Program-made: the position numbers and the translations under genes
Notes under the pieces: generated by a model
What the model saw: only the letters and a program-made list of their open reading frames with translations
Told to the model about the DNA's origin: nothing
Database searches by the model: none
NCBI GenBank assembly: GCA_040384565.1
Contig: JAZKJC010000002.1
Span: forward strand, 1,064-65,063
Length of the DNA: 64,000 nt
Source: Patescibacteria group bacterium
GTDB lineage: Bacteria > Patescibacteriota > Saccharimonadia > Saccharimonadales > JAZKJC01
Direction: 5' to 3'
Part shown: positions 2,812 through 64,000 of the stretch, piece by piece
How the letters are laid out: every line of letters begins with the position of its first letter
How positions within the stretch are numbered: the stretch's first letter is position 1

Positions 2812-2861
2812 GTTATTGCTCCTCTCCATAATGAATTTGGTCGTTTATAATCTGCATAATG

Positions 2862-3248
2862 TTACGTCTTTGAAGCCGATTTAGGTTGAGCTCCACCAAT
2901 AGCAGTCCTTTTGCCTCGTCTAGTCCTGGCATTTGTGCGGGTTCGTTGGCCCTTAGAAGGTAAGCCAATTTTATGTCGGATCCCACGGTAGCTATTGATA
3001 TCTTTAAGACGCTTTATGTTGGTAGAAACAACGCGCTGCAACTCACCTTCTACCATGTAATGCTCATTGATAACGTCTTGGATGCGTGAAATTTCGGAAT
3101 CAGTCAGGTTCTTAACTCTGGTTGTGACCTCTACGTTGGCCGACTTTAACACTTCGCCGCTAACTTTTGGTCCAATGCCATAGACATAGGTAAGAGCAAT
3201 TTGCACTTGTTTGGCGTCAGGAATGGTAACTCCGGAAATTCTCGCCAT
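2862..3248 (-). CDS. rpsM: 30S ribosomal protein S13
   Basis: MARISGVTIP.. is the S13 N-terminus. SD is CCGGAGGGAG. Confidence 0.95.
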   Translation of the reverse strand: MARISGVTIPDAKQVQIALTYVYGIGPKVSGEVLKSANVEVTTRVKNLTDSEISRIQDVINEHYMVEGELQRVVSTNIKRLKDINSYRGIRHKIGLPSKGQRTRTNARTRRGKRTAIGGAQPKSASKT

Positions 3249-3401
3249 TACGCTCTCCCTCCGGTCACTTCAATTTTCAGTTCACAATTTTCAGTTTTCA
3301 ATGATGGAAAGTGCGCTGCACTTGTTTTTTCATTGGAAATTGGAAACTGATAATTGATTGTAAATTGGTAATTGGTAAATGGTAAATTGAGCATAGCGAC
3401 G
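3249..3401. repeat. Heptamer-repeat spacer (rpmJ|rpsM): CAATTTT/CAGTTTT units, GTGC-GCT-GCAC hairpin, then GGAAATT/GGAAACT/GGTAATT/GGTAAAT units
   Basis: The right arm GGAAACTGATAATTG is 13/15 complementary to the left arm CAATTTTCAGTTTTC. Confidence 0.8.
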
Positions 3402-3518
3402 TTAACCTTGCCTTTGCTTATGCTTAGGTTTAAGTTTGTTGATAACATAAATACGCCCTTTGCGGCGTACGATAATATCGTCAGGACTAATCTTTTTAAC
3501 ACTTGCACGCACTTTCAT
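3402..3518 (-). CDS. rpmJ: 50S ribosomal protein L36
   Basis: Not in the ORF track. Hand translation gives [38 protein letters not shown], canonical L36, between infA and rpsM. Confidence 0.9.
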
Positions 3519-3567
3519 GCGGATCATTCCCCTTTATATAAGTGTGAATGACACACTGCTTAATTTA

Positions 3568-3786
3568 TTATGTTTTGCGGTACGTTATCCGACCCTTCGT
3601 AAGATCGTAAGGGGTCAATTCTACCGTAACGCTGTCCCCCGGCACAAGGCGAATGTAGTGTTTCCGCATCTTGCCGGCGACATGAGCTATAATCTTATGG
3701 CCGTTCTCGAGTTCAACACGGAACTGAGTACCTGGTAAGGCCTCTACTACTGTTCCTGCTAGTTCGATAACCTCTTTATTCGCCAT
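3568..3786 (-). CDS. infA: Translation initiation factor IF-1
   Basis: [30 protein letters not shown].. S1-like IF-1. The ATG at 3786 is chosen over the longer track ORF. Confidence 0.93.
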
Positions 3787-3854
3787 AGATGTATAACAAG
3801 GCTCAAGTATATCAGACCTGTCAAGACTTTGCAAAGAAGTTTTTCAGATTGATT

Positions 3855-5354
3855 TTATTGTTGTTTATTTCGCTTTCGTCTTGGCAGGAAACGGAGACGT
3901 CTTGCACCTGTAGCTGCTTCTGCAGCTGACTGTTGATCGTAGAAGAAGTCCGGCTGTTCATACTGATCATAGGTGACCATAAGTGCCCGCGATTCGATAG
4001 CTCGCAGTGTCTCAAGCGCCACTGACACCAAGATAAGGATACTCGTTCCACCGATTGCAATATTGGTTGATAAAAATCTCTGGCCAATAATTGGCAGAAG
4101 TGCTAAGAAGCCCAGACTTATAGCTCCAAACAGCGTTAGCCGATTCACAATTTTACTGAGGTATTTTTCTGTTTGGACACCTGATCTGACATCTGCTATA
4201 AAGCCACCTTGCTTCTGTAAATTCTCGGCTATTTCCTTGGCATTGAACGTAATGCTTGTATAGAAGAATGTAAACACAAAAACAAGAAAGAAATAAACAG
4301 CTGGGTAAATGTAGGGTATTAAACCAGGTGTCTGGAATGTTTCCTGGCTGGGTGTCGCAAACCATAGCACCAATTTGTCACCAATAGCTTGCAAGTTTGC
4401 GCTGCTAGCAGTGGTCATTAATTGACCGGCAAAGCTTGGAACACTCAAAAATGCTACCGCAAATATAATCGGTATCACACCGGCAGTAATAAGCTTTATA
4501 GGTAGTGTCGTGGTAACGCCGCCATAAGCTCTGTTACCCTGAACGCGCTTAGCATAATTGATAGTTATTTGTCTGGCTGCTTCGTTTAATTTGACTATAA
4601 ACACAGTCACAGCCACGACAATGGCAAGCATAAGCGCGCCAAATATTAGCCCTTTCCCATTGATAGGTAAGGTTTTCCCAAACACAACAAACTTGCTACT
4701 TTGATCAATAATTGAAGTAAGGATAGAATTTACGGTGCTAGGCAAGCTGCTTATAATACCCACGGTAATAATCAGCGAAATACCATTTCCCACGCTTTGC
4801 TCCGTCATAAGCTCGCCCAGCCACATTAGTATCATAGCACCACCCGTTAGAGCACCGACCATAAGCACCCACTGCATAATACCCGCACCCGCCGTAATAT
4901 CCCCAATTCCGCCAATTTGCTGAGCTTGAGTGCGGACCAAGTAAATTGCTCCAATAGACTGGATAATCGCCAACGGGAAAGTTAGCATACGGGTATACTG
5001 ATTGATTTTTTTCCGGCCATACTCGCCCTCTTTATTAAGGTTTTCAAGCCTTGGGATGGCTTTAGTTAGAAGCTGCACAATAATAGAAGCATTAATATAT
5101 GGTCCAAGCCCAACCAACATTATTGAAAAGTTGGCTAACGCTCCACCGGAGAGAACATCTAAAAAGCTAAGTAATTGAGGCGTGTCACTACTGGTAAATA
5201 GGTTTTGTAAGACTTGCTTTAGAGTTTCGGGATTACTCAATGGAATTGGAATATGAGCCAATACACGGAAAACAAGCAGCATGCCCAGCACCGCCAAAAT
5301 ACGCTTGCGCATATCGCTACTTTTTAGTGATGTCCATATAACTTTCCAGCTCAT
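3855..5354 (-). CDS. secY: Preprotein translocase subunit SecY (C-terminal extension)
   Basis: 499 aa, polytopic. Position after rplO. No adk or map follows. Confidence 0.94.
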   Translation of the reverse strand: MSWKVIWTSLKSSDMRKRILAVLGMLLVFRVLAHIPIPLSNPETLKQVLQNLFTSSDTPQLLSFLDVLSGGALANFSIMLVGLGPYINASIIVQLLTKAIPRLENLNKEGEYGRKKINQYTRMLTFPLAIIQSIGAIYLVRTQAQQIGGIGDITAGAGIMQWVLMVGALTGGAMILMWLGELMTEQSVGNGISLIITVGIISSLPSTVNSILTSIIDQSSKFVVFGKTLPINGKGLIFGALMLAIVVAVTVFIVKLNEAARQITINYAKRVQGNRAYGGVTTTLPIKLITAGVIPIIFAVAFLSVPSFAGQLMTTASSANLQAIGDKLVLWFATPSQETFQTPGLIPYIYPAVYFFLVFVFTFFYTSITFNAKEIAENLQKQGGFIADVRSGVQTEKYLSKIVNRLTLFGAISLGFLALLPIIGQRFLSTNIAIGGTSILILVSVALETLRAIESRALMVTYDQYEQPDFFYDQQSAAEAATGARRLRFLPRRKRNKQQ

Positions 5355-44369: not shown

Positions 44370-46601
44370 CTACAAAGCTACTGAGACGCTATTGGATGAC
44401 GGTGAATCGTTCTTTGCCGCGTCGTAAGCTACTACGTAATACGAATAAGTAGTGCCGGCTGTAAGCCCGGTATCGGTGAAATTCAGGCTAAAGGAATAGC
44501 CTGCTAGGCTAGTACTGGTGATTGTTTTACCCTTTGAGGTGGTGGAGGTACTGCGATAAATCTTATAGCCTGCTACGCCAACATTGTCTGTAGCGGCCGT
44601 CCAATTTAATGAAACCGAGTTGCTGGTTTTTGCGCCAACAACCAAATTCGTAGGTAGTGCTGGCGGTGTTATGTCATCATTTACCACCATAATGCTCTGG
44701 CACGGGGCACCAAACCACTCGTCCTGGCTTTTTTGATGCATCCGCCAGTCGAATTCATAACTGCCGGGAAGACTGGGTGCTGTCAAAGTAGCCGAAACAG
44801 TTGCTGACGCTCCAGTTGCTACATCGCCGTTTAGCGCAATACTGGCGGTTCCCCAAGTATTGCTGCTCGTCTGAGCATATACACCGCTTGACCAGGGATG
44901 TGGCACGACTTCGACCGAAGCAAGGTCATAATCGGCCGCTTTCCAGGCTTTGCTACCGGTATTTTTGATAACCATATTTGTAGTGAAACTCGACCCGGGC
45001 TTGACAGCCATGGGGGTGTTTTGCAAGCTACAGGCGGCATTGTTTGTACTAACAGATCTGCCATTGAATGCTACCCGCACCACTGCTTCGCCAGGGGTAA
45101 TTGATACAGCGGTTATGCTGATCCCACTAATCGGATCAGTAAAGGTCTTGCCTGTTTTCAGGCCAGCGTCGCGTGAACCACCCGGACCCAGTGTAGTTGG
45201 CGTGGTATCAATAATGTAGGTAGCCGCTGAACTCGTACAGTCAGCCGCTTGGCGTATGAGCACACCGTAATATTGTGATCGTTCAGGCTCAGTAGCGCTA
45301 GTGCGGCCATCAATAACCCCATACGGCTGGCGCAGCTCGACACAGTAATTAGGGTAATAGGTTTTACCTTTTGCAGGCTGAATAATCTTTAGCTGTTTGA
45401 CGCTGCTATCGCCATTTTCCAGTGGAGTTAAGCTGTAATCACCCGTCGCAGTTACGGTTTGAGTATTGGACGGTTGAAGCCATCCAAGCACTGACTTGTG
45501 CGTCGCGTTCATTTGTAAGTAATTACTATTGCCCATGACGTTATAGGCGTCTTGATATTCTATGTCCTTGCAGTTGGCCGACATTGCTACCGGCAAATTA
45601 TTTGTATCGTAGCAAAATCTGCCATTGGCATGCCTAGCACCGAAGTTGTGTCCCAATTCATGAGCAAGTACCCATGGGTATATACCTCTGGAGTTGACAA
45701 TACCCGCATAGGCAGTATTACCGCCCACTTGAGCTATCCCGCTAAAACCGCAATTCGTTGCGGCGTAATTGCCGTCGGGCCAAAGGTAAACAAAATTGTC
45801 GTAACCGGAAAGATCATGGCCTTCAGCAGTAGCCATCTCATATGCTTCTGTCCTCCAGTAGCCATAAAAACAGTTCTTGGAAGTGGTTGGCACGGCGTAC
45901 CAGCCGAATACGTCTCCATCCGGGTTAATTTTGCCAGTGAGGCTGCGCTCGTTATATGACGTTTCGCGGTAGTAGAGATTAACTGGTGGTTCCTCCGACC
46001 CAGGATTCAACCATTCTGTGCCAAATATTTGACGTTTAATAGTAGCGACGTCGACTGGTTTAACGGGGTTGTCTGCCCATGTGATCAAAATAACGGCGGT
46101 TTTGCGCGGGCTGTGATGGGGCAAGGCTTTGTAGGTTACTTCAAAATCGCTGCCACCCCTGGAAGCCAACTTAATGGTGCTCCCATCCTTGCGGCCACGG
46201 ATGTTAACTTTTGAGCCGGTAAGTAGTTCTGGTTCGGGCCCAGCGAATTCCAACCGGTATTTTTGACCGTCAGCTGCCTTTAGATTAAATTCTTCATGGT
46301 GTTCCCATTTTGAAACGTCAGGCTCTGGTTTGCCATCTTTGTCTAGTTTGAAGTTATCAAAACCCAGAACTTCAAGCTCACCAGATAGACTGACTAGTTG
46401 GGAAGAGTTGGGTATAGGCGCTGCAAACGACCTATATAGTGCGTATGTTCCAATAGCTGCGAACAACAGCACAAACAATAGCAGGTGAGTGCGCTGGAGA
46501 TTATGCGCCCTTTGAAGTACGAATTGCTTTATGCGCAAAAAACGAGAGCCAGATGCTGGGTGTGTTTGTTGTGGTTGTTTGTCTTCTTTATGGTCGGTCA
46601 T
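44370..46601 (-). CDS. Membrane-anchored secreted metzincin-type zinc metalloprotease with a C-terminal FN3 domain
   Basis: N-terminal TM helix; HELGHNFGARH is a perfect HExxHxxGxxH; C-terminal ..SVSLNWTAATDNVGVAGYKIYRS.. FN3. Confidence 0.8.
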   Translation of the reverse strand: MTDHKEDKQPQQTHPASGSRFLRIKQFVLQRAHNLQRTHLLLFVLLFAAIGTYALYRSFAAPIPNSSQLVSLSGELEVLGFDNFKLDKDGKPEPDVSKWEHHEEFNLKAADGQKYRLEFAGPEPELLTGSKVNIRGRKDGSTIKLASRGGSDFEVTYKALPHHSPRKTAVILITWADNPVKPVDVATIKRQIFGTEWLNPGSEEPPVNLYYRETSYNERSLTGKINPDGDVFGWYAVPTTSKNCFYGYWRTEAYEMATAEGHDLSGYDNFVYLWPDGNYAATNCGFSGIAQVGGNTAYAGIVNSRGIYPWVLAHELGHNFGARHANGRFCYDTNNLPVAMSANCKDIEYQDAYNVMGNSNYLQMNATHKSVLGWLQPSNTQTVTATGDYSLTPLENGDSSVKQLKIIQPAKGKTYYPNYCVELRQPYGVIDGRTSATEPERSQYYGVLIRQAADCTSSAATYIIDTTPTTLGPGGSRDAGLKTGKTFTDPISGISITAVSITPGEAVVRVAFNGRSVSTNNAACSLQNTPMAVKPGSSFTTNMVIKNTGSKAWKAADYDLASVEVVPHPWSSGVYAQTSSNTWGTASIALNGDVATGASATVSATLTAPSLPGSYEFDWRMHQKSQDEWFGAPCQSIMVVNDDITPPALPTNLVVGAKTSNSVSLNWTAATDNVGVAGYKIYRSTSTTSKGKTITSTSLAGYSFSLNFTDTGLTAGTTYSYYVVAYDAAKNDSPSSNSVSVAL

Positions 46602-52152: not shown

Positions 52153-53694
52153 ATGGAAAACGCTGCTTTCACTCCTAAAGTTACAGCAAAGCAGTGTGCA
52201 GTTATTTACCTGCGTGTATCAACCGAGGAACAAGTAGATAACTATTCGCTAGATACTCAGGCTGATCTTTGCCGTAAAGAAGCAGAGCGCCGGGGCTTAA
52301 CAGTTATGGAGATTTTTCGGGAGGAAGGACGGTCTGCTAAAACAATTCGTGAGCGACCCACTTTAATTGAGCTTTTAGGGTATTGTCGAAAGAACCGGAA
52401 AGACATTGCTGCTGTTATCGTCTACCGATTAGACCGCATATCTCGTCAAACAGCCGATTACTTAGCCATTCGCAAAAAGCTAGTTGAATCAGACATTACG
52501 CTTATCTCTGCTAGCGAGCCAACTGGAGACACACCCACAGAACGTTTTGTCGAAACAATGCTGGCAGGTTTTGCCCAAATGGATAACGACGTCCGTGGTG
52601 AACGTTCTAGAAACGGTATGAAGGCACGATTTATGAGTGGCCTACCTAATGGAAGCCCCTCACTCGGTTATTTAAAAGAGAATGGTTACGCCGTCAAAGA
52701 CCCTGAAACATTTAGTGCTTTGCAAGTCGCCTGGCAACTTATGGAAACCGGCACAAAAAGCCTGCGGGAAATGGCTAAGATTCTGAATGATCAGGGCATT
52801 ACTGATAGGCGTAAGGGCTATAAAGATTCGCCAATACGAGCCCAAACTTTGAGTGGTATCTTTCGTAATAAGTTTTACGCTGGCAAGGTAGTATCCAAGA
52901 AGTATGGGCTGGAAGTTCAAGGCCAGCATACTCCTATGGTCACCGAAGAAATGTTTTACCGCGTACAGGCGATCCTAGACGGTAGAAACCGCAATGCATC
53001 ACCTACGCTTGCCAGACGCAGCCTGGAAAGCCCTGACTTCCCATTAAGACGTATAATTATCTGCAATAACTGCGATCATTCATTCAGCGGAGCATGGAGC
53101 AAAGGGAAACGACAGAAATATGCATACTATTTCTGCGTGAAGCGCTGTAGCTCGTCGGTAACGATCAGTGACATAGAAACTACCACCGATGAACTGTTAA
53201 GGGATATAACGCTTAAAGATGAGTCTGTGAAGCTTATTAACGCCTTCTTGCGCCGTACGTACTATTTGCAGATTGACTCGCTGAAACAAAAACGTGACCA
53301 TGCGGACATTGAACTGCAGAAGATCTACGAAACCCGCCAGGCACTCATACAGAAGAATTTGGATGGTGTCTACTCTGACGACATCTTCAAAGAGCAGAAT
53401 AAAGTCCTGGAAGAAAAGATCAAAGCTATCCAAGCGGCTAAGAATGATACGGTGATAGAGAAATACAACCTAGAAGCTATTAGCAAGTTTATCCAGGAGA
53501 AGTTTACTAACCTTAATGAAACCTTTTCCACCTCTGAGCTGACACTTAAACGCGTCCTCATGTGTTCACTATTCCCCAAAGGATTACGTTGGGGCTATCC
53601 GGGGTATGTGAACACCCAAATCAGTCCATTCTACCGAAGTTTTCTGGCTCTTCAAGGACGTCAAGTCCAGATTGGTGCGGATGAAAGGACTTGA
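52153..53694 (+). CDS. Large serine recombinase
   Basis: ..AVIYLRVSTEEQ..YSLDTQ.. catalytic Ser region, ..VYRLDRISR.., recombinase domain, Cys cluster (CNNCDH..YYFC..RC), C-terminal coiled-coil region. Confidence 0.88.
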   Translation: MENAAFTPKVTAKQCAVIYLRVSTEEQVDNYSLDTQADLCRKEAERRGLTVMEIFREEGRSAKTIRERPTLIELLGYCRKNRKDIAAVIVYRLDRISRQTADYLAIRKKLVESDITLISASEPTGDTPTERFVETMLAGFAQMDNDVRGERSRNGMKARFMSGLPNGSPSLGYLKENGYAVKDPETFSALQVAWQLMETGTKSLREMAKILNDQGITDRRKGYKDSPIRAQTLSGIFRNKFYAGKVVSKKYGLEVQGQHTPMVTEEMFYRVQAILDGRNRNASPTLARRSLESPDFPLRRIIICNNCDHSFSGAWSKGKRQKYAYYFCVKRCSSSVTISDIETTTDELLRDITLKDESVKLINAFLRRTYYLQIDSLKQKRDHADIELQKIYETRQALIQKNLDGVYSDDIFKEQNKVLEEKIKAIQAAKNDTVIEKYNLEAISKFIQEKFTNLNETFSTSELTLKRVLMCSLFPKGLRWGYPGYVNTQISPFYRSFLALQGRQVQIGADERT

Positions 53695-55220: not shown

Positions 55221-57284
55221 TTAATTTAGGTTTGTTACTAATCTTGCCGATTTGACCCTTGCGGCCAGCTCAGGGTATTTTAGCAAATTTTCTTTCTTAT
55301 CTATAAATTCCTGAGCGCTATGACGGGCTTCTGATATTAGTTTCGTATCTGTCAATTTTGCAATCCTAAGGTCTAATTGACCATGCTGCAGTGTGCCGTA
55401 AATTGCACCCGGACCACGTAGTTCCAAATCGTACTCTGCGAGTTTAAATCCATCTGAAGAATGTTCGAGCGCACGTAAACGTGGTGATGGTGGCTGGCTG
55501 TCACTAATTAGCAAGTAGCAGTAGCCCTGGTGCTCACTACGACCTACCCTGCCACGCAGTTGATGTATTTGAGCCAAGCCAAACCGTTCTGGATTTTCGA
55601 TTAGCATAACAGTGGCGTTGGGCACATCAACACCGACTTCTATTACTGTAGTTGAAATAAGTATGTCCAGCTCGTGTTTTACAAACGCCTGCATAATAGC
55701 GTCTTTCTGTGCTGGTTTTAGCTTGCCATGCAGCAAGCTAACTCTGCGGTGCTTAAACACGCCATTAGTAAGTTCCGCATAGATTTGTTCCACAGATTTT
55801 GCCGGCATAAGCTCGGAATCGCTAATTAGCGGGCAGACTACAAACACCTGACGCCCGGCTGAGATTTCTACATCTATTTTCTCATATACTTTTGATCGCT
55901 CGTTAAGTGTAATCAGATCAGTTTTAATTTGTTTACGGTTAGCGGGTTTACTGCCAATGACAGAAATATCTAGCTCGCCATAAAGCGTCAGTGCCAGGCT
56001 GCGCGGAATAGGCGTAGCTGTCATAGACAGCACATGGGGCATGTGACCGGCCTTAGCCTGTAGCTTTTTACGCTGATCCACGCCAAAACGGTGTTGCTCA
56101 TCAATTATTACAAAACCGAGTTTGTGCATATCTACTTTTTCCTGGAGCAGGGCGTTGGTGCCAATCATAAAACGTATATCGCCGTTGGCAATACGTTTAT
56201 GTGCCTCATGCTTTTGGGATGGCTTAAGTCCGCCCACTAGCAGACCTACCTCGCCCGCCATAGCTACTGGCTCCAAAAGCTTATGTACAGTCTCGGCGTG
56301 TTGCCGGGCCAATAGTTCGGTCGGTGCCATTAGAGCCACCTGATAACCCTGTTTGATCGCCATTAGTGCTGCCATTGCTGCCACTACAGTTTTGCCCGAC
56401 CCGACATCACCCTCAATTAACCGGTTCATCGGTTGAGAACGTTGCATATCCTGATAGATTTGCCAGACAACCCGTTTTTGGTCAGGTGTTAGGTGAAATG
56501 GCAAATGCTTAACAAAGCTCCTGGCTAGCTTTTCGTCAAACGGGATAGAAACGGTATGTTCTTGTTGTAGCTCATATTTGTTTAGCAATGCTGCCAGAGT
56601 AAGCTCAAATACTTCCTCAAAGCCTAATCGTTTTTTAGCAGCTAACAAATCCTGTTGACTACTAGGAAAATGTATTTGCTCGACCGCATCACTCCTACTG
56701 TACAAGGACAGTCCTTGTACAAGCCATTTAGGGAGAGTTTCGGGTAAATCTTGAATCAAAGGCAAAACTTCACGAATAGTTTTTCTGATCTGAGTAGATG
56801 TTAGCCCTTTTGTTTCTTTATATATTGGCACAATCCTCGCAGTACTAACTGGGAAGCTGCTAACAAGTTCTATTGATGGGTTCTGAATACTAAGTCGCTG
56901 GCGCTTAAGACTAAAATCACCAGAAATATAGTATTCCTGATCACTCTTTATTGATGCCGCTCTGTAAGGCTGATTAAACCAGATAAGCCGCACGCTGCCG
57001 GTATCATCACTGGCAGCGGCTTCGGTTATATGCAATCCACGCCGGGCATATCGGCCTGATGATTGTTTTATAAAAGCTTTGATTGTGACATTGCCGGGCC
57101 GGATTTGGTTGATCAGTTGTACTTGTGAGTAGTCATCATATCGCCGCGGATAGTAATCAATCAATTGACCAATTGTTTTAATGCCTAAAATGGAGAATTT
57201 CTTTGCAAGCTCAACCCCAACACCTTTTACGTTAGTCAATGGGCTATGTAATGTCATGTGTTGTGTAGTATAAAACAATGCCAC
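55221..57284 (-). CDS. recG: ATP-dependent DNA helicase RecG
   Basis: 687 aa, wedge domain plus ..GDVGSGKT.., DEQHRFG, ..QLRGRVGR.. helicase motifs. Confidence 0.93.
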   Translation of the reverse strand: MALFYTTQHMTLHSPLTNVKGVGVELAKKFSILGIKTIGQLIDYYPRRYDDYSQVQLINQIRPGNVTIKAFIKQSSGRYARRGLHITEAAASDDTGSVRLIWFNQPYRAASIKSDQEYYISGDFSLKRQRLSIQNPSIELVSSFPVSTARIVPIYKETKGLTSTQIRKTIREVLPLIQDLPETLPKWLVQGLSLYSRSDAVEQIHFPSSQQDLLAAKKRLGFEEVFELTLAALLNKYELQQEHTVSIPFDEKLARSFVKHLPFHLTPDQKRVVWQIYQDMQRSQPMNRLIEGDVGSGKTVVAAMAALMAIKQGYQVALMAPTELLARQHAETVHKLLEPVAMAGEVGLLVGGLKPSQKHEAHKRIANGDIRFMIGTNALLQEKVDMHKLGFVIIDEQHRFGVDQRKKLQAKAGHMPHVLSMTATPIPRSLALTLYGELDISVIGSKPANRKQIKTDLITLNERSKVYEKIDVEISAGRQVFVVCPLISDSELMPAKSVEQIYAELTNGVFKHRRVSLLHGKLKPAQKDAIMQAFVKHELDILISTTVIEVGVDVPNATVMLIENPERFGLAQIHQLRGRVGRSEHQGYCYLLISDSQPPSPRLRALEHSSDGFKLAEYDLELRGPGAIYGTLQHGQLDLRIAKLTDTKLISEARHSAQEFIDKKENLLKYPELAARVKSARLVTNLN

Positions 57285-57310
57285 CAGATAATGAGATACT
57301 TGGGCTATTT

Positions 57311-57748
57311 CTACTCCACCACCACTGTCCCGTTAGTGGTCGGATTCAGGTGGTCGTGGTAGGTGTATTCGCCTGGCTGGTCAAAGGTGTAGCTGTAGGT
57401 ACCACCTTCTATACCGATGATGTCTTTGCTGTCTAGCCCGGTTAGACCGGTATGTTCCGGGTGGGGATTGCTGGCAACATGGTGCACAACGGAGTCTTTG
57501 TTAGTCCAAGTGACGGTTGTACCTTTGGATATTTTCAGTGTCGCGGGGATGAAGCCCTCTTTGGTGATTTCTACTTGAGCAGCTGTTTGTTGACTAGCTC
57601 CCTGATCAGGTGATTGGTCGGTTTGTTTGTTAAGGTTGAGTGCCAGGCCAATGATGAGCACCAGCAGCAACGCACCGGTGATGACCAATACCTTGACCGT
57701 ATTTCTGGGGTCATGGCTGGGGATTGGGTTTTCTTCGTCTGGGTTCAT
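57311..57748 (-). CDS. Membrane-anchored cupredoxin-like protein lacking any cysteine
   Basis: TM helix, then ..FIPATLKISKGTTVTWTNKD..HHV.. ..GEYTYHDHLNPTTNGTVVV. This is the plastocyanin-like strand pattern but without the Cys ligand. Confidence 0.55.
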   Translation of the reverse strand: MNPDEENPIPSHDPRNTVKVLVITGALLLVLIIGLALNLNKQTDQSPDQGASQQTAAQVEITKEGFIPATLKISKGTTVTWTNKDSVVHHVASNPHPEHTGLTGLDSKDIIGIEGGTYSYTFDQPGEYTYHDHLNPTTNGTVVVE

Positions 57749-57776
57749 ATAGCTCCTACTTTCTTGAATTAGTTAA

Positions 57777-60700
57777 TTACTTCTTATTCGTACTTGCTAC
57801 GACAGCCGTATTGCTGGCCGGCCCTTGACGGTTATTGGTATCTAGAGCTATGACGTAGTAACTGTAGCGGGTGTTGGGTTTGGCAGTAGCGTCACCGTAA
57901 ATAGTGGCCGGTCCGTTGGTAGTGCCTAGTTCCGTGAATTGGCCAGTCGTGCCTACCTGACGGTAGATTTTGTAGCGGGCAATGTTGTCAGTGGCAGCGG
58001 TCCAACTTAAGTTAACTTGGTTGGAGCTAATAATAGTAGGTATTAGTTTGGTGGGCGCAGTTGGCGGGGTGGTGTCACCGCCGGTGGTAGGCGCAGCTGG
58101 AGTAGCGACGGTTTTGGTGGTGGTTGGGTCGGATAATAGGCTTGAGTTGTCCTTAGCTATTACGTAGTAGTAATAGGTCGTGCTGGCGCTGACTGAATCG
58201 GTGTAGCTGAGATTGGTTGTAGTGGCTATGTTCATGAATTGGCCAGTAGTACCGGTTTGGCGGTAGATTAAGTATTCCTTGATGCCGCTGGCGTCTGTGC
58301 TGGCTGTCCAGGTTAGTTTGGCCTGGGTAGCGCTCAAGGCAGTGGCGGCGAAGCTGCCAGGAGTTGAGGGCCGCGTTGTATCTGGAGGAGCCTGAGTAGT
58401 AGCAGTCGCAGTGGAGCTGAGACCGCTGGGGTTGCCGGCAGCGTCAAGGGCCTCAATAGCATAGCTGTAAGTCGTGCCACCAGTTACGGCGCTGTCACTA
58501 AAGCTGGTGCCAGTTATATTGTTGGTTAAGATGTCGGTTGGGGTACCGGTGCCTAGGCGTCGGTAGACCCGGTAGCTGATGACACCAACAACGTTATCTG
58601 TGCTGGCTGTCCAATTAACGTTTACGAGCGTAGGACTGGCAGCTGAGGCTGACACGTTATCAGGTATGGAAGGACGGGTGGTGTCGGTTGGAGGGGGTGG
58701 GGGCGGCGTGACTGTGCCAGCATCGCCCAGGAAGAGGCCGGCCAAAACGGCATTAGTGCTAGTGCCGGCATTGTTTTGGGTTGTAATTGTCAGTGTACCG
58801 CCCGCGGGGACATTGATCGGAGCGTTAATCCAAACACCTTGATTAAAGGATGAAGTAATACTAGCGGCCCTGGGGCCAGATCCGTCATTAACGGTGACGG
58901 TCTGGCGGCGGGCGATAGAGTCCTGATCCAGGGCGTAGAGGTGCAGATTGCCGCTGTAGGCTGAGCTGAAGTTCAGCTTGACGTCGAACTGGGTGCCGGC
59001 GTAGACCGCGGTAGACTTGCGGATGGTTTGGTCTGGGCTTTGCAAAGCTCGGGTTTCGGCACTGGACATAGTCCATTGGTGGCGTTGGGCGCCGTTGATA
59101 GTCATAGTAACGCCTGCCGGTAGTGATATGAGGTCGGTGTCACCGGCATTCCATTCGAATAATACATACCCATCCTTACCGTAAGTGCCGACCCAGTTGC
59201 CTTGGGGGGATTGGCTGGTAGTCAGGGCGGCGGCTGGTTGCGGGGTGGTTAGGGTGACGGTGTTGGAATTACTGGAGACATTGCCTGCCCCGTCACGGGC
59301 TTTGACATAGTAGCTGTAAGTAGTACCACCGGCCAGGCCGTTGGCGTCACCGTAACTGGTAACCAGGCCCACGGTAGCGATCTTGACGTTATTACGCCAG
59401 ACTTCGTAGCCGGATAAGCCGGAGCCGCCAGTGTCGGTACTGGCTGTCCAGGACAGGTTGATCTGGGTGGCACTGACAGCCGAGCCGGATAGGGTTGGGG
59501 TGGATGGCGCGGTAGTGTCCGGAGCTTGAGGGGTGGTGATGGTCTTTACAGCAAAGTCCGAAAAGTTTCCGGCCGCATCCTTGGCTCGGACTGAGAAAGT
59601 GTAGGCAGTGTTGGCTGTAAGGCCGGTGTTGTTGTACGTGGTAGTCGGACTATTGACCGTAGCAATTAAGCCAGGCAGGCCACCGGAATTACGATAGACA
59701 TAGTATTGGGTGACGCCCACATTGTCGGTGGAAGCGGACCAACTGAGGTTGACTTGAGTGGCACTGACGGCAGTGGCGTTGAAGTTGCCCGGTATTGTAG
59801 GCGGGGTGGTGTCGGCAGGAACTGGCGGGGTGACGCTTAGTGGTGTAGACTTGTCGGATTCAGCGCTGTCATAGTCTATAGCCGATACTTGATAGGTATA
59901 GGTATTTGGTGACGCAACAGCTGTGTCGGTATAGGTTAGCTGGGTGGTATAGGTGTAAAAATTGCCATTGCGGTAAATGCGGTATTCTTTCACGCCCTTG
60001 TCGTCCGTACTGGCGTTCCAGGCTAGGGCAATGGAGTTAGATGTCACACTGGTGGTGCGCAGATTAGCCGGAACTGTGGGCGCAGTATTTGGTGCAGCGA
60101 TGGTTAGTGTCTTGCTTAACGAGTTGTTACTCTCGTTGCTTTCATTGGGGATAGCGTTTGAAGGGTCAACCACGGCCAGTACAGCATGCGACCCGGCAGT
60201 TGCCGTCCAGGTGCTAACACCACCCGGGCCATCTACGCTGGCCAAGGTACGGCTTTCGCCTGGAGCTAATGGCCAGCCGGCGTTACCATTCCAGCCTGCC
60301 GAAGTCCCGTCGACGCTGAACGCAATAACGAGACCCTCAGGCGTAGAAGCCGTGCCAACATTTTTAACGGTGGCACTGACGGTTACCAGGTTGCCGGACT
60401 GTGGTGAAGCAGGTGTCCAGGTGATGGAGTCCGGGACCACGATTAGGTCAGGCTGACTCGTAGGAGGGGGTGGGTCAGTGATCCCAATGGGAACAAGCCA
60501 GCATAAATAGTTGTCACCCCAACTATGCGGATCACTGGACTCAAATACTAGTACGCAGTCGGTATCTTCATTGTCAGGATTACCAGCATAACTCCAGTGA
60601 AGCCCTATATATGTATTAGAACAGAGCACATTATCGTTCCAGGTGTAAGGATCCGCGGGTTCAGTAATATTGGTACAGTTATACTCTACCGTTTTATCGG

Positions 60701-63700
60701 TCGGCCACGCGCTGGTAAACGTAAGACCAACATCAGGACTCGCGCATAAAACATTATCACCCCACCCATGCGGATCTGTTGTTTCGTTGATGTAAATACA
60801 ACCGGGCTGAAGCGGTTTAATTGTTTCTACATACCTATTCCAACACAAGTAATTATCTTCCCAGCCGTAGCCGCCACCGTCCCAATCGGACGGTTCTTCG
60901 ATCTTTACACAGCCGGTGTCAGCGTCTTCATATATATTACCTCTCCAGCTCCAATCGAAGTGGACGTTGGGATTAGAGGTACAGATAACGTTATCTCCCC
61001 AGGTGTCCGGGTCATCAGGTTCGTAGATACGGACACAGTTAGCTGGCAAATTGGTTGGGTCGGGGTGAGCGGTACTCCAAGTCAAACCAAGGTCGGGTGA
61101 CATGCACAGGACATTGTCGTACCAGGGGGCAGTTTCAGATGTTTCGTTCATATTGATACAGCCGGCTGGCAGGGGCGCGCTTACCGAGCCAGGTTTATAG
61201 GTGTCCCAACACAAGAAGTTATCAGTCCAATAGTGGGGGTCTTCGGCTTCGTTCATTGATACGCAAGTTGTGTTGGTGTCAGAAATGTTGCCCCAGTAAC
61301 TCCAGCGCAGATTTACATCTATTAGGGTACACAGTACGTTATCCCCCCAGGTATCCGGATCGCCTGGTTCGTACAACCCTACGCATTTGGGGGCAAGCGG
61401 ATACTCGGGCGGCCAGGCACTGGTATAGCTCCAACCAAGGTCCTGGTTCGAACAAAGATGATTGTCCCCCCAGGCGTGTTCAGGCGGCTCGGATGATTCG
61501 TGAATTTGTACACAAGATCCGGGCAAACCATTACCATCGGAGGCGGTGTACCAGTTCATCTGGAGATCACGCGGAATACGTTCTTGGGGCCAGGCGGTAG
61601 TCCAGGAGGCGGTTATGTTGGTGGGAGTGTAGTCTTTTGGCCAGGAGTCAGTGTATGTCATTGATGTTTTGAAATCGGGAGGGACACCTTGGTTTGTCTG
61701 GGCCGGGAGACCTATGTAGCGTCCAAACAATTTTCTTTCTCCTGACGCCTGGATAATCGCATACGCGTCTGAACCAGCATTATCAACCATGTCTATGTAA
61801 GGGGTGGCCGATGAAGGGGTGGCCGCCGCAGAGCCGAAGTAGCGTGCATTGCCAAATGAAAATATTCCGCCGTCCCTGGCGACAAGCCAGTAGCCTTTGC
61901 TATCCACAGTAGCCTGCATGCCAATAATCGGCTGGTTTAATTTAATGGCGCCTGTCGATCCGTAAAAGCGCGCGTCTCCAAAGGCGAATACTCCACCGTC
62001 ACTAGCAAACAGCCAATAACCACTATTTGTATCTGTCACTTCCATGCCGATAATCGGACTATTTAAAGTTTTACCTCCAAGTGAGCCGTATGATTTGGCA
62101 GCGCCATAAGCGAATATCCCACCGTCAGAGGCCACCAGCCAATAGCCCGTCTTGCCATCTACATAATCACTGCGCGAGGCCATCCCCACAATTGGTTTGT
62201 TTAAGGTAATGCTACTCGCGTCGCCATAATGTTTAGCGTCGCCATGGGCAGACACTTTGCCATTTTGTAGGGCTATGTAGTAACCTACATTTTTAGCCGA
62301 AATTGAAATAGCAGCTACCGGAGCTGACAAGGCCTTGCCAGCCAAGTCACTGTAAGTAGTGATGGACTCACCACAATTCGTAACCTTGCCGTCACTGGAA
62401 AGCACCCGGTATCCGGGCTTTTCGTTATTATATTGTTTGGGAGAATCAATGCTGACCCCGTTTGTGATCGGACAGGCTACTGCGGCGGTTATGCCAGTAT
62501 TAAACCAAGCGCTTCTCTCATTCAGCACTTTGGCCTGGTTGTCATTGAGTGCGACATTTTCTAGCCCTGCTGCATAATTTTTATCATGTCCGCAACTACC
62601 CATAAGTGTAGCGTCACAAGTATGTGAGAGAGTAAAGCCATGTCCAATTTCGTGAGCTAATAGCGGCAGTTGCTGGGAACACTTACTATTAGCGCTATAG
62701 ACACCAATACCGAGTTTTACGTTTGGCGCTTCATCAAAATCCTTATTCGGATCCTCTCCTGTATCGTCCTGGGTATCATTTCTTGCGCCGCCCCAACCCG
62801 TACAACCATCAGCATGCCAACTATAGAGTATAGCCGTATTACTATCGTAAGCTGCAAATTCTGCAGCTAAGTGTTGATACGTAAAAAAGGTCCTGTCTGG
62901 GTTGCTTGTGCCGCTACAAGTATAATAGCTTTCCGGACAGGCCTTATACTGTGCTTCGGTCAGCCGACCCTTTACAACCTTTACTTCACTGGTAATGAAA
63001 GGTTTTTTAACCCTATCAGCGTAAAAAGCGGCTATCCTATTCGCGGCGTCCGTTATCTTCGCCTGAGCGTCAGCGGGTTGCGCCTGGTCAGCTGGATAGA
63101 CGTACAAAAACCGGACTTTTTTCTGTGCCTGCGCATAAACTTTACCCGACTCTGCGGCACTCGTAATCGTCCTGTCACCGTTAGTAAATTCCGGTACTTC
63201 TGGCAAGGTACGGATTTTTACAACTTTGCCATCATCGCCTTTATAAACTTTGGCTTCTTTTGACAGCTTGCCTTTTACTTCTTGAGCTTTGTCACCAAGT
63301 AGTTTGCTGGTTTTGGATTTTTTATCTTTGTCTAAATAGGCCTTGAATTCATCTGGCACTGGCTCGAGGTCTTGACCGGATTTGTTTTGCTGGACGGTCT
63401 GAACGTAAATGGTATCCGAGTCAAATGGCTTAGTAGCTTTGGCGCACTCACTTTCCAAATATTTCGTAATGTCTTCGAAACCATTTGGCCGTTCACCAGA
63501 ATAAAGTTCTATACTGCGCTTACCACGATCTGTAAATAGGCTTACGCTTGGTTCAGCTCCAACCGGGGCTGGAATCCGATCCTTTGGCACTGTTCTGGCG
63601 CGGATCCTGTCAAAACCTTTTTCCCGTACTGTATTAAATAGAGTTTCGATCTCTTTTTCATTGAGTTTGCGTGTGCGAATTGACCACAATGAACTATTAT

Positions 63701-64000
63701 CACTTTTGTTATGGGTAGCATGCGGGTCGCCACAGAGCATAGAACCGTCACCGTAAAGCAACATAGCGGGAGGACCGCCCTTGGGAAATTCATCTTCTAT
63801 AACTTCATGGCTCATTGGTGTGTCGTAGCGGATAACAAGTTCGTCTGCACCTGTCGGAATGTTTCCATAATCATTCTGCGCATAATTTGTCACAAGAAAA
63901 TATACACTCCCGAAAACTGCAAAAATACCTATAAAAGTCAGAACCTGTCCGTATTTTGAGAGGTTTAAAAAGCGATACGTCAGTATATTAATCCTTGAAC
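57777..64000 (-). CDS. Giant surface protein (>2038 aa; 5' end beyond the window): TM anchor, HExxH metalloprotease-like region, beta-propeller-like repeats, 9 Cys/Trp repeats, CARDB, 6 FN3 and one CBM-like domain
   Basis: The frame stays open from 63893 to 64000 (..VLTFIGIFAVFGSVYFLV.. TM helix, no start codon), so the track GTG start is artefactual. HEIGHGFTLSH at 62622-62654. FN3 signatures (..LSWTASTD..Y.VYR..) x6. Confidence 0.85.
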   Translation of the reverse strand, partial: SRINILTYRFLNLSKYGQVLTFIGIFAVFGSVYFLVTNYAQNDYGNIPTGADELVIRYDTPMSHEVIEDEFPKGGPPAMLLYGDGSMLCGDPHATHNKSDNSSLWSIRTRKLNEKEIETLFNTVREKGFDRIRARTVPKDRIPAPVGAEPSVSLFTDRGKRSIELYSGERPNGFEDITKYLESECAKATKPFDSDTIYVQTVQQNKSGQDLEPVPDEFKAYLDKDKKSKTSKLLGDKAQEVKGKLSKEAKVYKGDDGKVVKIRTLPEVPEFTNGDRTITSAAESGKVYAQAQKKVRFLYVYPADQAQPADAQAKITDAANRIAAFYADRVKKPFITSEVKVVKGRLTEAQYKACPESYYTCSGTSNPDRTFFTYQHLAAEFAAYDSNTAILYSWHADGCTGWGGARNDTQDDTGEDPNKDFDEAPNVKLGIGVYSANSKCSQQLPLLAHEIGHGFTLSHTCDATLMGSCGHDKNYAAGLENVALNDNQAKVLNERSAWFNTGITAAVACPITNGVSIDSPKQYNNEKPGYRVLSSDGKVTNCGESITTYSDLAGKALSAPVAAISISAKNVGYYIALQNGKVSAHGDAKHYGDASSITLNKPIVGMASRSDYVDGKTGYWLVASDGGIFAYGAAKSYGSLGGKTLNSPIIGMEVTDTNSGYWLFASDGGVFAFGDARFYGSTGAIKLNQPIIGMQATVDSKGYWLVARDGGIFSFGNARYFGSAAATPSSATPYIDMVDNAGSDAYAIIQASGERKLFGRYIGLPAQTNQGVPPDFKTSMTYTDSWPKDYTPTNITASWTTAWPQERIPRDLQMNWYTASDGNGLPGSCVQIHESSEPPEHAWGDNHLCSNQDLGWSYTSAWPPEYPLAPKCVGLYEPGDPDTWGDNVLCTLIDVNLRWSYWGNISDTNTTCVSMNEAEDPHYWTDNFLCWDTYKPGSVSAPLPAGCINMNETSETAPWYDNVLCMSPDLGLTWSTAHPDPTNLPANCVRIYEPDDPDTWGDNVICTSNPNVHFDWSWRGNIYEDADTGCVKIEEPSDWDGGGYGWEDNYLCWNRYVETIKPLQPGCIYINETTDPHGWGDNVLCASPDVGLTFTSAWPTDKTVEYNCTNITEPADPYTWNDNVLCSNTYIGLHWSYAGNPDNEDTDCVLVFESSDPHSWGDNYLCWLVPIGITDPPPPTSQPDLIVVPDSITWTPASPQSGNLVTVSATVKNVGTASTPEGLVIAFSVDGTSAGWNGNAGWPLAPGESRTLASVDGPGGVSTWTATAGSHAVLAVVDPSNAIPNESNESNNSLSKTLTIAAPNTAPTVPANLRTTSVTSNSIALAWNASTDDKGVKEYRIYRNGNFYTYTTQLTYTDTAVASPNTYTYQVSAIDYDSAESDKSTPLSVTPPVPADTTPPTIPGNFNATAVSATQVNLSWSASTDNVGVTQYYVYRNSGGLPGLIATVNSPTTTYNNTGLTANTAYTFSVRAKDAAGNFSDFAVKTITTPQAPDTTAPSTPTLSGSAVSATQINLSWTASTDTGGSGLSGYEVWRNNVKIATVGLVTSYGDANGLAGGTTYSYYVKARDGAGNVSSNSNTVTLTTPQPAAALTTSQSPQGNWVGTYGKDGYVLFEWNAGDTDLISLPAGVTMTINGAQRHQWTMSSAETRALQSPDQTIRKSTAVYAGTQFDVKLNFSSAYSGNLHLYALDQDSIARRQTVTVNDGSGPRAASITSSFNQGVWINAPINVPAGGTLTITTQNNAGTSTNAVLAGLFLGDAGTVTPPPPPPTDTTRPSIPDNVSASAASPTLVNVNWTASTDNVVGVISYRVYRRLGTGTPTDILTNNITGTSFSDSAVTGGTTYSYAIEALDAAGNPSGLSSTATATTQAPPDTTRPSTPGSFAATALSATQAKLTWTASTDASGIKEYLIYRQTGTTGQFMNIATTTNLSYTDSVSASTTYYYYVIAKDNSSLLSDPTTTKTVATPAAPTTGGDTTPPTAPTKLIPTIISSNQVNLSWTAATDNIARYKIYRQVGTTGQFTELGTTNGPATIYGDATAKPNTRYSYYVIALDTNNRQGPASNTAVVASTNKK
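60501..61514 (-). repeat. Nine tandem coding repeats of about 35-40 aa: C-[VI]-x-[IMLV]-x-E-x2-D-P-x2-W-x-D-N-x-[LI]-C ... W-S
   Basis: Repeats delimited by eye in the translated product (aa 794-1131 of the track ORF). Confidence 0.8.

Follow-up and report, generated by a model that had tools for sequence, protein, structure and literature searches.

A 64,000-nucleotide stretch of DNA from a bacterium of the Saccharimonadales (Patescibacteria; contig JAZKJC010000002.1), referred to as a whole as the window, encodes a giant protein in which nine cysteine-bracketed, tryptophan-rich loops follow one another. We found that these loops make up three tandem copies of a three-lobed domain of about 115 amino acids (aa), hereafter the module. 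The module represents an undescribed domain family; it probably serves surface proteins and secreted proteins as an accessory for binding, which would be a familiar sort of job.

Nine cysteine loops form three copies of one domain

The loops lie at positions 60501-61514 on the minus strand, corresponding to aa 794-1131 of the open reading frame (ORF) 57777..63893. Their 18 cysteines define nine brackets (794/814, 837/855, 877/895, 912/930, 953/971, 995/1017, 1032/1050, 1073/1091 and 1113/1131) with the content C-[VIT]-x-[IMLV]-x-E-x2-(D/E)-(P)-x2-W-x-D-N-x-[LIV]-C, in which C, E, W, D, N and C were kept in 9/9 loops. The core W.DN.[LIV]C occurred nine times in the ORF, compared with a mean of 5e-5 and a maximum of 1 in 20,000 shuffles of the ORF; in a six-frame translation of the window it was not found anywhere outside the giant ORF. 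The nine Cys-bracketed, Trp-rich repeats described in the original prediction, which was made from the sequence of the window, are thus real, and the flanks were also as described there, with GYW...DGG blades upstream and a CARDB domain (aa 1147-1260) downstream. The array is strongly acidic (isoelectric point (pI) 4.05; 55 D+E versus 9 K+R) and contains 6.5% Trp. No tandem repeat was found in the array at the DNA level and the units share just 24-57% protein identity, which points to an old, diverged array rather than a recent expansion.

The original prediction had regarded each stretch of 35-40 aa as a unit of its own. Period-3 identities, profile units and loop counts replaced this view: the folding and evolutionary unit is a domain of ~115 aa composed of three sub-repeats, here in three tandem copies (aa 777-1132). 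Units 1/4/7 were 37-49% identical to each other, units 2/5/8 40-57% and units 3/6/9 42%, and most other pairs fell between 24 and 38%. When loops were counted with a strict regular expression, 150 of 199 homologues had 3, 6 or 9 of them, and homologues from a set of 5.8 billion proteins spanned the query in steps of about a quarter, half or most of its length. A hidden Markov model (HMM) built from four single-domain proteins found full-length units of ~112 aa throughout, three of them in the window protein, whose copies scored 58-87 bits with this 4-sequence seed. Furthermore, the family profile aligned to itself at a shift of ~41 residues (99% probability, E=2e-18), and many homologues terminate exactly at ...DNYLC[WY].

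All three copies are encoded on the minus strand. Copy 1 (aa 777-896, loops 1-3, 61206..61565; HMM envelope 776-897) is followed by copy 2 (aa 897-1018, loops 4-6, 60840..61205; envelope 901-1019) and by copy 3 (aa 1019-1132, loops 7-9, 60498..60839; envelope 1023-1133), which scored 87 bits. Ahead of copy 1 stands a preface (aa 740-776, 61566..61676) of short strand segments that contain Trp but no Cys loops (FKTSMTYTDSWPKDY / ITASWTTAWPQE). This loop-less block, FKTSMTYTDSWP...ITASWTTAWPQ..., is conserved in the subfamily of the candidate phyla radiation (CPR).

The sub-repeat consensus, taken from 596 copies across the family, reads G-[FL]-x-[WF]-S-x-A-G-P-I-x-G-x-x-C-[VT]-x-[IVW]-x-E-P-x-D-P-x-T-W-x-D-N-[YF]-[LF]-C. 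In these 596 sub-repeats the first C, the W and the second C were conserved to 100%, and E/D/D/N ranged from 94 to 99% (E 98%, D 97%, N 99%). The family has a median pI of 4.17 and a net charge of -11. The window copies are a divergent, CPR-type variant with a degenerate first strand in copies 2 and 3.

Predicted structure

From a 65-sequence alignment, AlphaFold2 folded copy 3 into an all-beta domain of nine strands, three per sub-repeat (predicted local distance difference test (pLDDT) 89.1, predicted template modelling score (pTM) 0.82). The strands of a sub-repeat are the WS strand, a strand from the first Cys and a strand ending at the second Cys, the last directly preceded by a one-turn helix at W-x-D. 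In this model the invariant Cys pair lies at the open end of the hairpin and probably clamps the 10-14-residue loop by a disulfide. The disulfide-closed loop of the original prediction is compatible with these data, as the two cysteines are invariant family-wide and stand at the start and end of neighbouring strands in the model; the disulfides themselves we infer.

For the whole array (aa 735-1140) the confidence was lower (pLDDT 80.5, pTM 0.47). The individual domains appear credible in this model and their mutual orientation is not defined, as would be the case for beads on a string. The preface was modelled with strands E10-14, E19-23 and E27-31 (aa 744-765), with block pLDDT values between ~70 and 87.

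When compared with 350,542 PDB chains by Foldseek, the best match was E=1.2 with a template modelling (TM) score of 0.23 for the single domain and E=0.17 for the array. Neither the single domain nor the whole array had a match with E<0.1 in the PDB or in BFVD, and matches to MHC and Fab chains, none of which reached E<0.1, were regarded as noise. AlphaFold and Foldseek, which the original prediction had proposed as checks, thus returned a confident model and no similar PDB fold.

Search for known families

Pfam (models up to 2025) and NCBIfam (June 2026) were searched with the window protein and 13 canonical members, and nothing matched across the module. Matches to TS_C and Rv1419 were weak, short and far under the cutoff. 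When the window protein and five canonical members were scanned, neither the Myxococcus cysteine-rich repeat (TIGR02232) nor the other Cys-repeat models of NCBIfam matched over the module. Searching the PDB by sequence and by profile at E<=10 gave nothing for the domain. The best PDB match of the sub-repeat profile, the RLD of HERC2 (an RCC1 blade), was not significant (E=0.86, 12.9 bits), and an RCC1-like repeat identity was rejected, there being no significant profile match and no propeller in the model. Searches of full-text literature for the loop motif strings of the module and for myxobacterial lysin binding domains gave nothing relevant. A Hydra domain, SWT (sweet tooth), was considered as a lead and was dismissed, as its published peptide sequences and description bear no likeness to the module (PMC3531485); SWT is a ConA-like beta-sandwich of ~190 aa, two of which occur in a protein of 370-390 aa (PMC3531485). 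Altogether, the earlier statement that the module is not recognised was confirmed, no confident match to an existing family having come from the Pfam, NCBIfam and PDB searches.

Family size, domain partners and taxonomic distribution

A profile search of 1.84 billion cluster representatives recovered 1061 proteins at E<=1e-3, 807 at E<=1e-10 and 424 at E<=1e-30. The window protein, identical to cluster representative P0092, scored E=2.5e-88 with profile A1, which includes the window's own copies; independent homologues had earlier been found at E down to 2e-46. The original prediction had described the module in the giant protein and had proposed to scan metagenomes with an HMM; the module is not confined to this protein, being part of a family of more than 1000 cluster representatives.

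The homologues from the 5.8-billion-protein set carry the module together with M15/VanY, M23, GH25, amidase_2, S8, astacin, reprolysin-like, GH5+CBM2 and PLD domains. Partners detected in the Pfam scan were M23 (9 of 65 proteins), CARDB, fn3, astacin, NPCBM, CBM96, M10, PKD, Laminin_G_3, RHS, CUB and Lectin_C. Fusions were also encoded in genomes: CHAP+CARDB+module in two CPR lineages, M23 with the module in Bdellovibrionales and, in Pseudoalteromonas, PI-PLC+module with a weak B_lectin match as well as module+Ricin_B. Envelope-degrading enzymes and adhesin-like proteins carry the module as an appendage. Very often it is attached to a catalytic domain, and it constitutes the C-terminal end in 77 of 199 proteins; in many it is both C-terminal and the sole non-catalytic domain (e.g. 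P0013, P0030, P0047, L012 and L040). In the myxobacterial M15 proteins P0001, P0003, P0009 and P0021 the module copies are followed by a Gly/Ala-rich linker and then by a Cys, a helix of hydrophobic residues and a terminal RRR. We take this C-terminal tail to resemble MYXO-CTERM, a surface-sorting signal; no MYXO-CTERM-like model came up when P0003 was scanned with NCBIfam.

Taxa were derived from 135 confirmed loci in GTDB with one genome per species. The statements made here rest on the matches listed (80 of 135), and the taxon list is biased to canonical sequences, the search patterns having come from a myxobacterial-type alignment. Among the matches listed, most were from Myxococcota; the others included Bdellovibrionales, Pseudoalteromonas luteoviolacea/rubra/umbrosa and the CPR lineages Paceibacteria, Saccharibacteria/Saccharimonadales, Moraniibacteriota and Parcubacteria. 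These are lineages known to attack or to live on other cells; predation by Pseudoalteromonas has been described (PMC6962226). Among eukaryotes, the octocoral Paramuricea clavata has an astacin (P0148, CAB4021953.1) with TSP1, two modules, CUB and C-type lectin domains. Three further eukaryotic-looking proteins (P0054, P0066 and P0136) are Lys-rich and multi-copy, one of them, from a marine eukaryote catalogue, with Notch/LNR repeats. The presence of the module in eukaryotes suggests either inter-kingdom transfer or an ancient origin.

The module was found in 0 of 50,697 phage genomes and 0 of 72,556 plasmids. A single IMG/VR contig (L081, 62.9 kb, high G+C (guanine plus cytosine)) encodes at 2854-4167 a secreted protein of 437 aa, in which a trypsin-like serine protease (TAAHC...GDSGGP) comes after the module and a Cys-rich tail after the protease. 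This contig may represent a prophage of myxobacteria or a region that was misclassified. With this one contig and none among those phage genomes and plasmids, identity with the cell-binding domains of phage lysins was rejected.

The giant protein and its relatives in CPR bacteria

The giant ORF (57777..63893, minus strand) is listed with a GTG start and a product of 2038 aa. From the N-terminus the protein is made up of a probable transmembrane (TM) anchor encoded upstream of this start, a metzincin-like head, ~6 GYW blades, the preface with three modules, CARDB, three fn3 domains, a domain of ~185 aa and three more fn3 domains. The metalloprotease head (aa 275-434, 62592..63071) was matched by Pfam Reprolysin_5 at E=4.6e-4, under the curated cutoff, and its zinc motif HEIGHGFTLSH (aa 414-424, 62622-62654), read directly from the sequence, is intact. 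Next come the ~6 GY[WY]...DGG...FG blades of ~42 aa each (aa 494-735, 61689..62414). They are of the type GYWLVASDGGIFAFGDAxFYGS...LNxPIVGM, common to all CPR-type relatives of the giant protein, had no Pfam or NCBIfam match at E<=1 and presumably form a beta-propeller. C-terminal to the array stand CARDB (60114..60455; Pfam PF07705, E=3.8e-14) and three fn3 domains (aa ~1271-1556, 59226..60083); Pfam fn3 matched at E=1.1e-27, with six stretches in the whole ORF. The beta-rich domain of ~185 aa (aa 1557-1742, 58668-59225; SPQGNWVGTYGKDGYVLFEWNAG...NAVLAGLFLG) lies between the fn3 blocks, had no significant Pfam or NCBIfam match and is also found in the relative P0099. Three further fn3 domains detected by Pfam (aa ~1737-2038, 57780..58685) complete the protein.

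The reading frame is open upstream of the listed GTG (63891-64000, minus strand). It encodes a hydrophobic segment, VLTFIGIFAVFGSVYFLV (63891..63944), which is preceded by R/K residues, runs into the listed start codon and is a probable N-terminal signal anchor. A TM segment occupies the equivalent place in the homologous giant proteins P0151, P0122 and P0099. Because of this open frame and the TM anchor of the relatives at the same place, the giant protein is very probably membrane-anchored and extracellular. The annotated product, which begins MTNYAQ, probably lacks the true N-terminus, its start having been placed too far downstream; the true N-terminus may lie beyond the window edge.

Five relatives (P0099, P0104, P0122, P0151 and P0166) share a core of GYW blades, module copies, CARDB and then fn3. 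Three module copies are present in P0099, P0104 and P0122, and two were detected in P0151 and P0166. Around this core the relatives vary in their heads (CAP, M64, reprolysin-like) and tails (NPCBM, CBM96, dockerin-like). P0099 (MES2971554.1), with a CAP-domain head, is encoded on another contig of the same metagenome-assembled genome (MAG) and is 63% identical overall to the window protein. Over aa ~745-1013 (60855-61661; ~270 aa), which cover the preface and copies 1-2, the two proteins are 100% identical, and the flanks reach just 30-70%. This pattern suggests that genes for giant surface proteins recently underwent gene conversion or exchanged a cassette; otherwise it would be an artefact of assembly.

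In another Saccharimonadales MAG (L033:2164-3864) a protein of 567 aa combines a pilin-like N-terminus, one module copy and a beta/gamma-crystallin-like C-terminus. The matches to N_methyl (E=0.0017) and Crystall (E=0.00058) were both under the Pfam cutoffs. By means of such a protein an epibiont could display the module on a fibre resembling a type IV pilus.

The locus of the giant gene is chromosomal, with rpoB/rpoC, EF-G and recG nearby. The G+C content was 0.49-0.51 across the giant gene (56001-64000 of the window) versus 0.42-0.48 in the remaining window, and a large serine recombinase (XisF/CcrB-like) is encoded at 52153-53694 on the plus strand, ~4 kb from the giant gene. The raised G+C and the recombinase may reflect horizontal acquisition, or the G+C may merely follow the amino-acid composition. 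Directly downstream of the giant gene lies a gene for a small cupredoxin-domain protein (57311-57748, minus strand), and 11 kb off a second putative surface protease of 743 aa with an M6-like domain and an fn3-like C-terminus is encoded (44370-46601, minus strand).

Possible function of the module

On balance we lean towards the view that the module is an extracellular, multivalent binder of glycan or cell wall, possibly Ca2+-dependent, which targets its protein to the surface of a host or prey. In each sub-repeat the short '[FL]xWS' strand is followed by a beta-hairpin with a probable Cys-pair clamp, and the hairpin loop of 10-14 residues bears the conserved E-(P)-x-D-P-x-x-W-x-D-N, so that the array shows nine equivalent acidic, Trp-containing loops. 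The loop of each lobe may act as a binding site, possibly with Ca2+, and three domains would provide up to nine sites and hence high avidity. The ligand would be a repeating surface polymer of another cell, such as peptidoglycan, an associated glycan or another polysaccharide. In the Patescibacteria protein the array would hold the metalloprotease head, and with it the remaining protein, on the surface or wall of the host cell; in myxobacteria, Bdellovibrionales and Pseudoalteromonas the module would aim secreted lytic enzymes at the prey. Glycan or metal binding, as suggested in the original prediction, appears plausible in view of the lysins, cellulase and lectins among the domain partners and of the marked acidity (pI ~4). 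That the module binds at all, what class of ligand it binds and whether calcium is needed are matters of inference.

Several observations weigh against such a binding role. The E/D/W/D/N residues are conserved in all three sub-repeats and in all nine window loops, as is typical of structural residues; in pseudo-symmetric lectins, ligand sites often decay in some of the lobes. The partners are heterogeneous (proteases, phospholipases, cellulase, peptidoglycan hydrolases) and therefore imply no single ligand. The module often stands beside known binders (CBM2, Ricin_B, B_lectin, NPCBM), where it may be redundant, which would favour a linker role. Finally, it is nearly absent from phages (one IMG/VR match), and the classical cell-wall-binding domains of lysins are common there.

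The strongest competing explanation, which we regard as rather unlikely, holds the module to be a passive, rigid stalk or spacer, stiffened by disulfides and possibly by Ca2+ and having no ligand of its own, which keeps catalytic or adhesive parts off the membrane in the manner of fn3, CARDB and Ig-like domains. The position of the array within a chain of spacer-type domains (CARDB, 6x fn3), the occurrence of 1-3 tandem copies with low inter-domain confidence (pTM 0.47), the retention of the motif in every lobe and the co-occurring bona fide binding modules, which could bind instead, would all fit a spacer. However, the module is often the sole non-catalytic domain and C-terminal, and a spacer leading nowhere would be senseless. 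Moreover, spacer domains are rarely so selective for predatory and epibiotic lineages, or found so consistently on envelope-degrading enzymes.

It is improbable that the module instead serves protein-protein interaction or regulation, by binding a protein receptor of the target cell, by oligomerisation, by retention on the own surface or by masking the hydrolase until deployment. Its presence on proteases, and in the octocoral astacin with TSP1, CUB and C-type lectin domains, is a setting typical of protein interaction; the Saccharimonadales protein with the weak match to a pilin-type N-terminal methylation motif carries it too, and the ~270-aa segment of 100% identity between two paralogues of one MAG could reflect selection for a shared partner. 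Yet Myxococcota, CPR bacteria and Cnidaria all show strong conservation of the loop residues, which favours a chemically generic ligand such as a sugar or metal, and the majority of the partners are polysaccharide- or peptidoglycan-active enzymes.

Least probable of all is that the module is a very divergent form of a known three-fold lectin fold (ricin-type beta-trefoil/CBM13 or beta-prism) and structurally not new: although it has three sub-repeats of ~40 aa, a Cys-Cys span of ~18-19 residues followed by an aromatic strand that recalls ricin-B subdomains, and a weak match of P0013 (aa 256-300) to the NCBIfam Rv1419 lectin (E=0.0018, 17.9 bits, cutoff 200), Pfam Ricin_B_lectin and RicinB_lectin_2 were unmatched even at E<=1, hhalign gave 0.07% against a ricin-B alignment that is shallow (effective number of sequences (Neff) 1.4), Foldseek returned no trefoil or prism with a confident model (best E=1.2, TM 0.23), the model has 9 strands rather than 12, and in Pseudoalteromonas the module stands beside a distinct, genuine Ricin_B.

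A more far-reaching form of the surface-binding view can be put forward tentatively; we hold it for possible, with less conviction than the view in its general form. The module would then be a new fold and a new family of Ca2+-dependent carbohydrate- or cell-wall-binding domains with three sites each, aiming hydrolases and adhesins at foreign surfaces in predators, CPR epibionts and cnidarians. In CPR bacteria it would be the host-recognition element of anchored giant proteins in which heads and tails (CAP, M64, metzincin; NPCBM, CBM96, dockerin-like) are swapped round a conserved core (propeller, three modules, CARDB, fn3), the module region being homogenised among paralogues by gene conversion.

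Here, a domain in more than 1000 protein clusters has neither a Pfam or NCBIfam model nor a solved structure. Its definition would annotate a 'blank' region that many lytic enzymes secreted by myxobacteria, Bdellovibrionales and Pseudoalteromonas contain. If the module binds cell walls or glycans, it would constitute a new carbohydrate-binding module (CBM) or cell-wall-binding family and a candidate for what sets the range of prey or hosts in bacterial predation. As part of the core that anchored giant surface proteins of CPR bacteria have in common, and of a pilin-like protein, the module is a concrete candidate for the means by which these bacteria recognise and hold their host. A possible application is its use as targeting module for engineered lysins.

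Comparison with known systems

The C-terminal, resistin-like domain of PCSK9 was the top Foldseek match in both searches; like the module it is pseudo-three-fold and all-beta, and it is disulfide-rich, as the module probably is. These matches were not significant (E=0.17-1.2, probability 0.05, TM 0.09-0.23) and give no evidence of kinship.

Likeness to the Ca2+/sugar site of C-type lectins (EPN...WND) is superficial: the module has E-P-x-D...W-x-D-N within a loop that is probably disulfide-closed, in acidic surroundings that would suit Ca2+, whereas size and architecture are wholly different. A C-type lectin-like domain (PF00059) was rejected, since no Lectin_C match fell on the module and Foldseek returned no such domain. 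The octocoral protein has a genuine Lectin_C at aa 867-975, outside its module copies at 219-335 and 404-523.

Ricin-type beta-trefoils (R-type/CBM13) give enzymes and toxins a multivalent hold on sugars. They share with the module three repeats of ~40 aa, one disulfide per sub-repeat (probable in the module) across ~18-19 residues and an aromatic-bearing strand next to it. Unlike the module, they have a (QxW)3 motif, where the module has [FL]xWS and WxDN, and twelve strands, where its model has nine. PF00652 and PF14200 gave no Pfam match at E<=1 on the window protein or canonical members, and the family profile reached 0.07% probability in hhalign against the ricin-B alignment, a shallow target (Neff 1.4). 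The trefoil identity was thus rejected for want of a profile match, of a trefoil among the Foldseek matches and of twelve strands. In the Pseudoalteromonas proteins a genuine Ricin_B domain adjoins the module and is clearly distinct from it.

Lysins and carbohydrate-active enzymes carry binding modules at the C-terminus. With SH3b, LysM, PG_binding_1 and the CBM families the module has no sequence or fold relationship, and it differs from them in being almost absent from phages. Like these, however, it is a non-catalytic appendage, often C-terminal or in tandem, on M23, M15, GH25, amidase, CHAP and GH5 enzymes.

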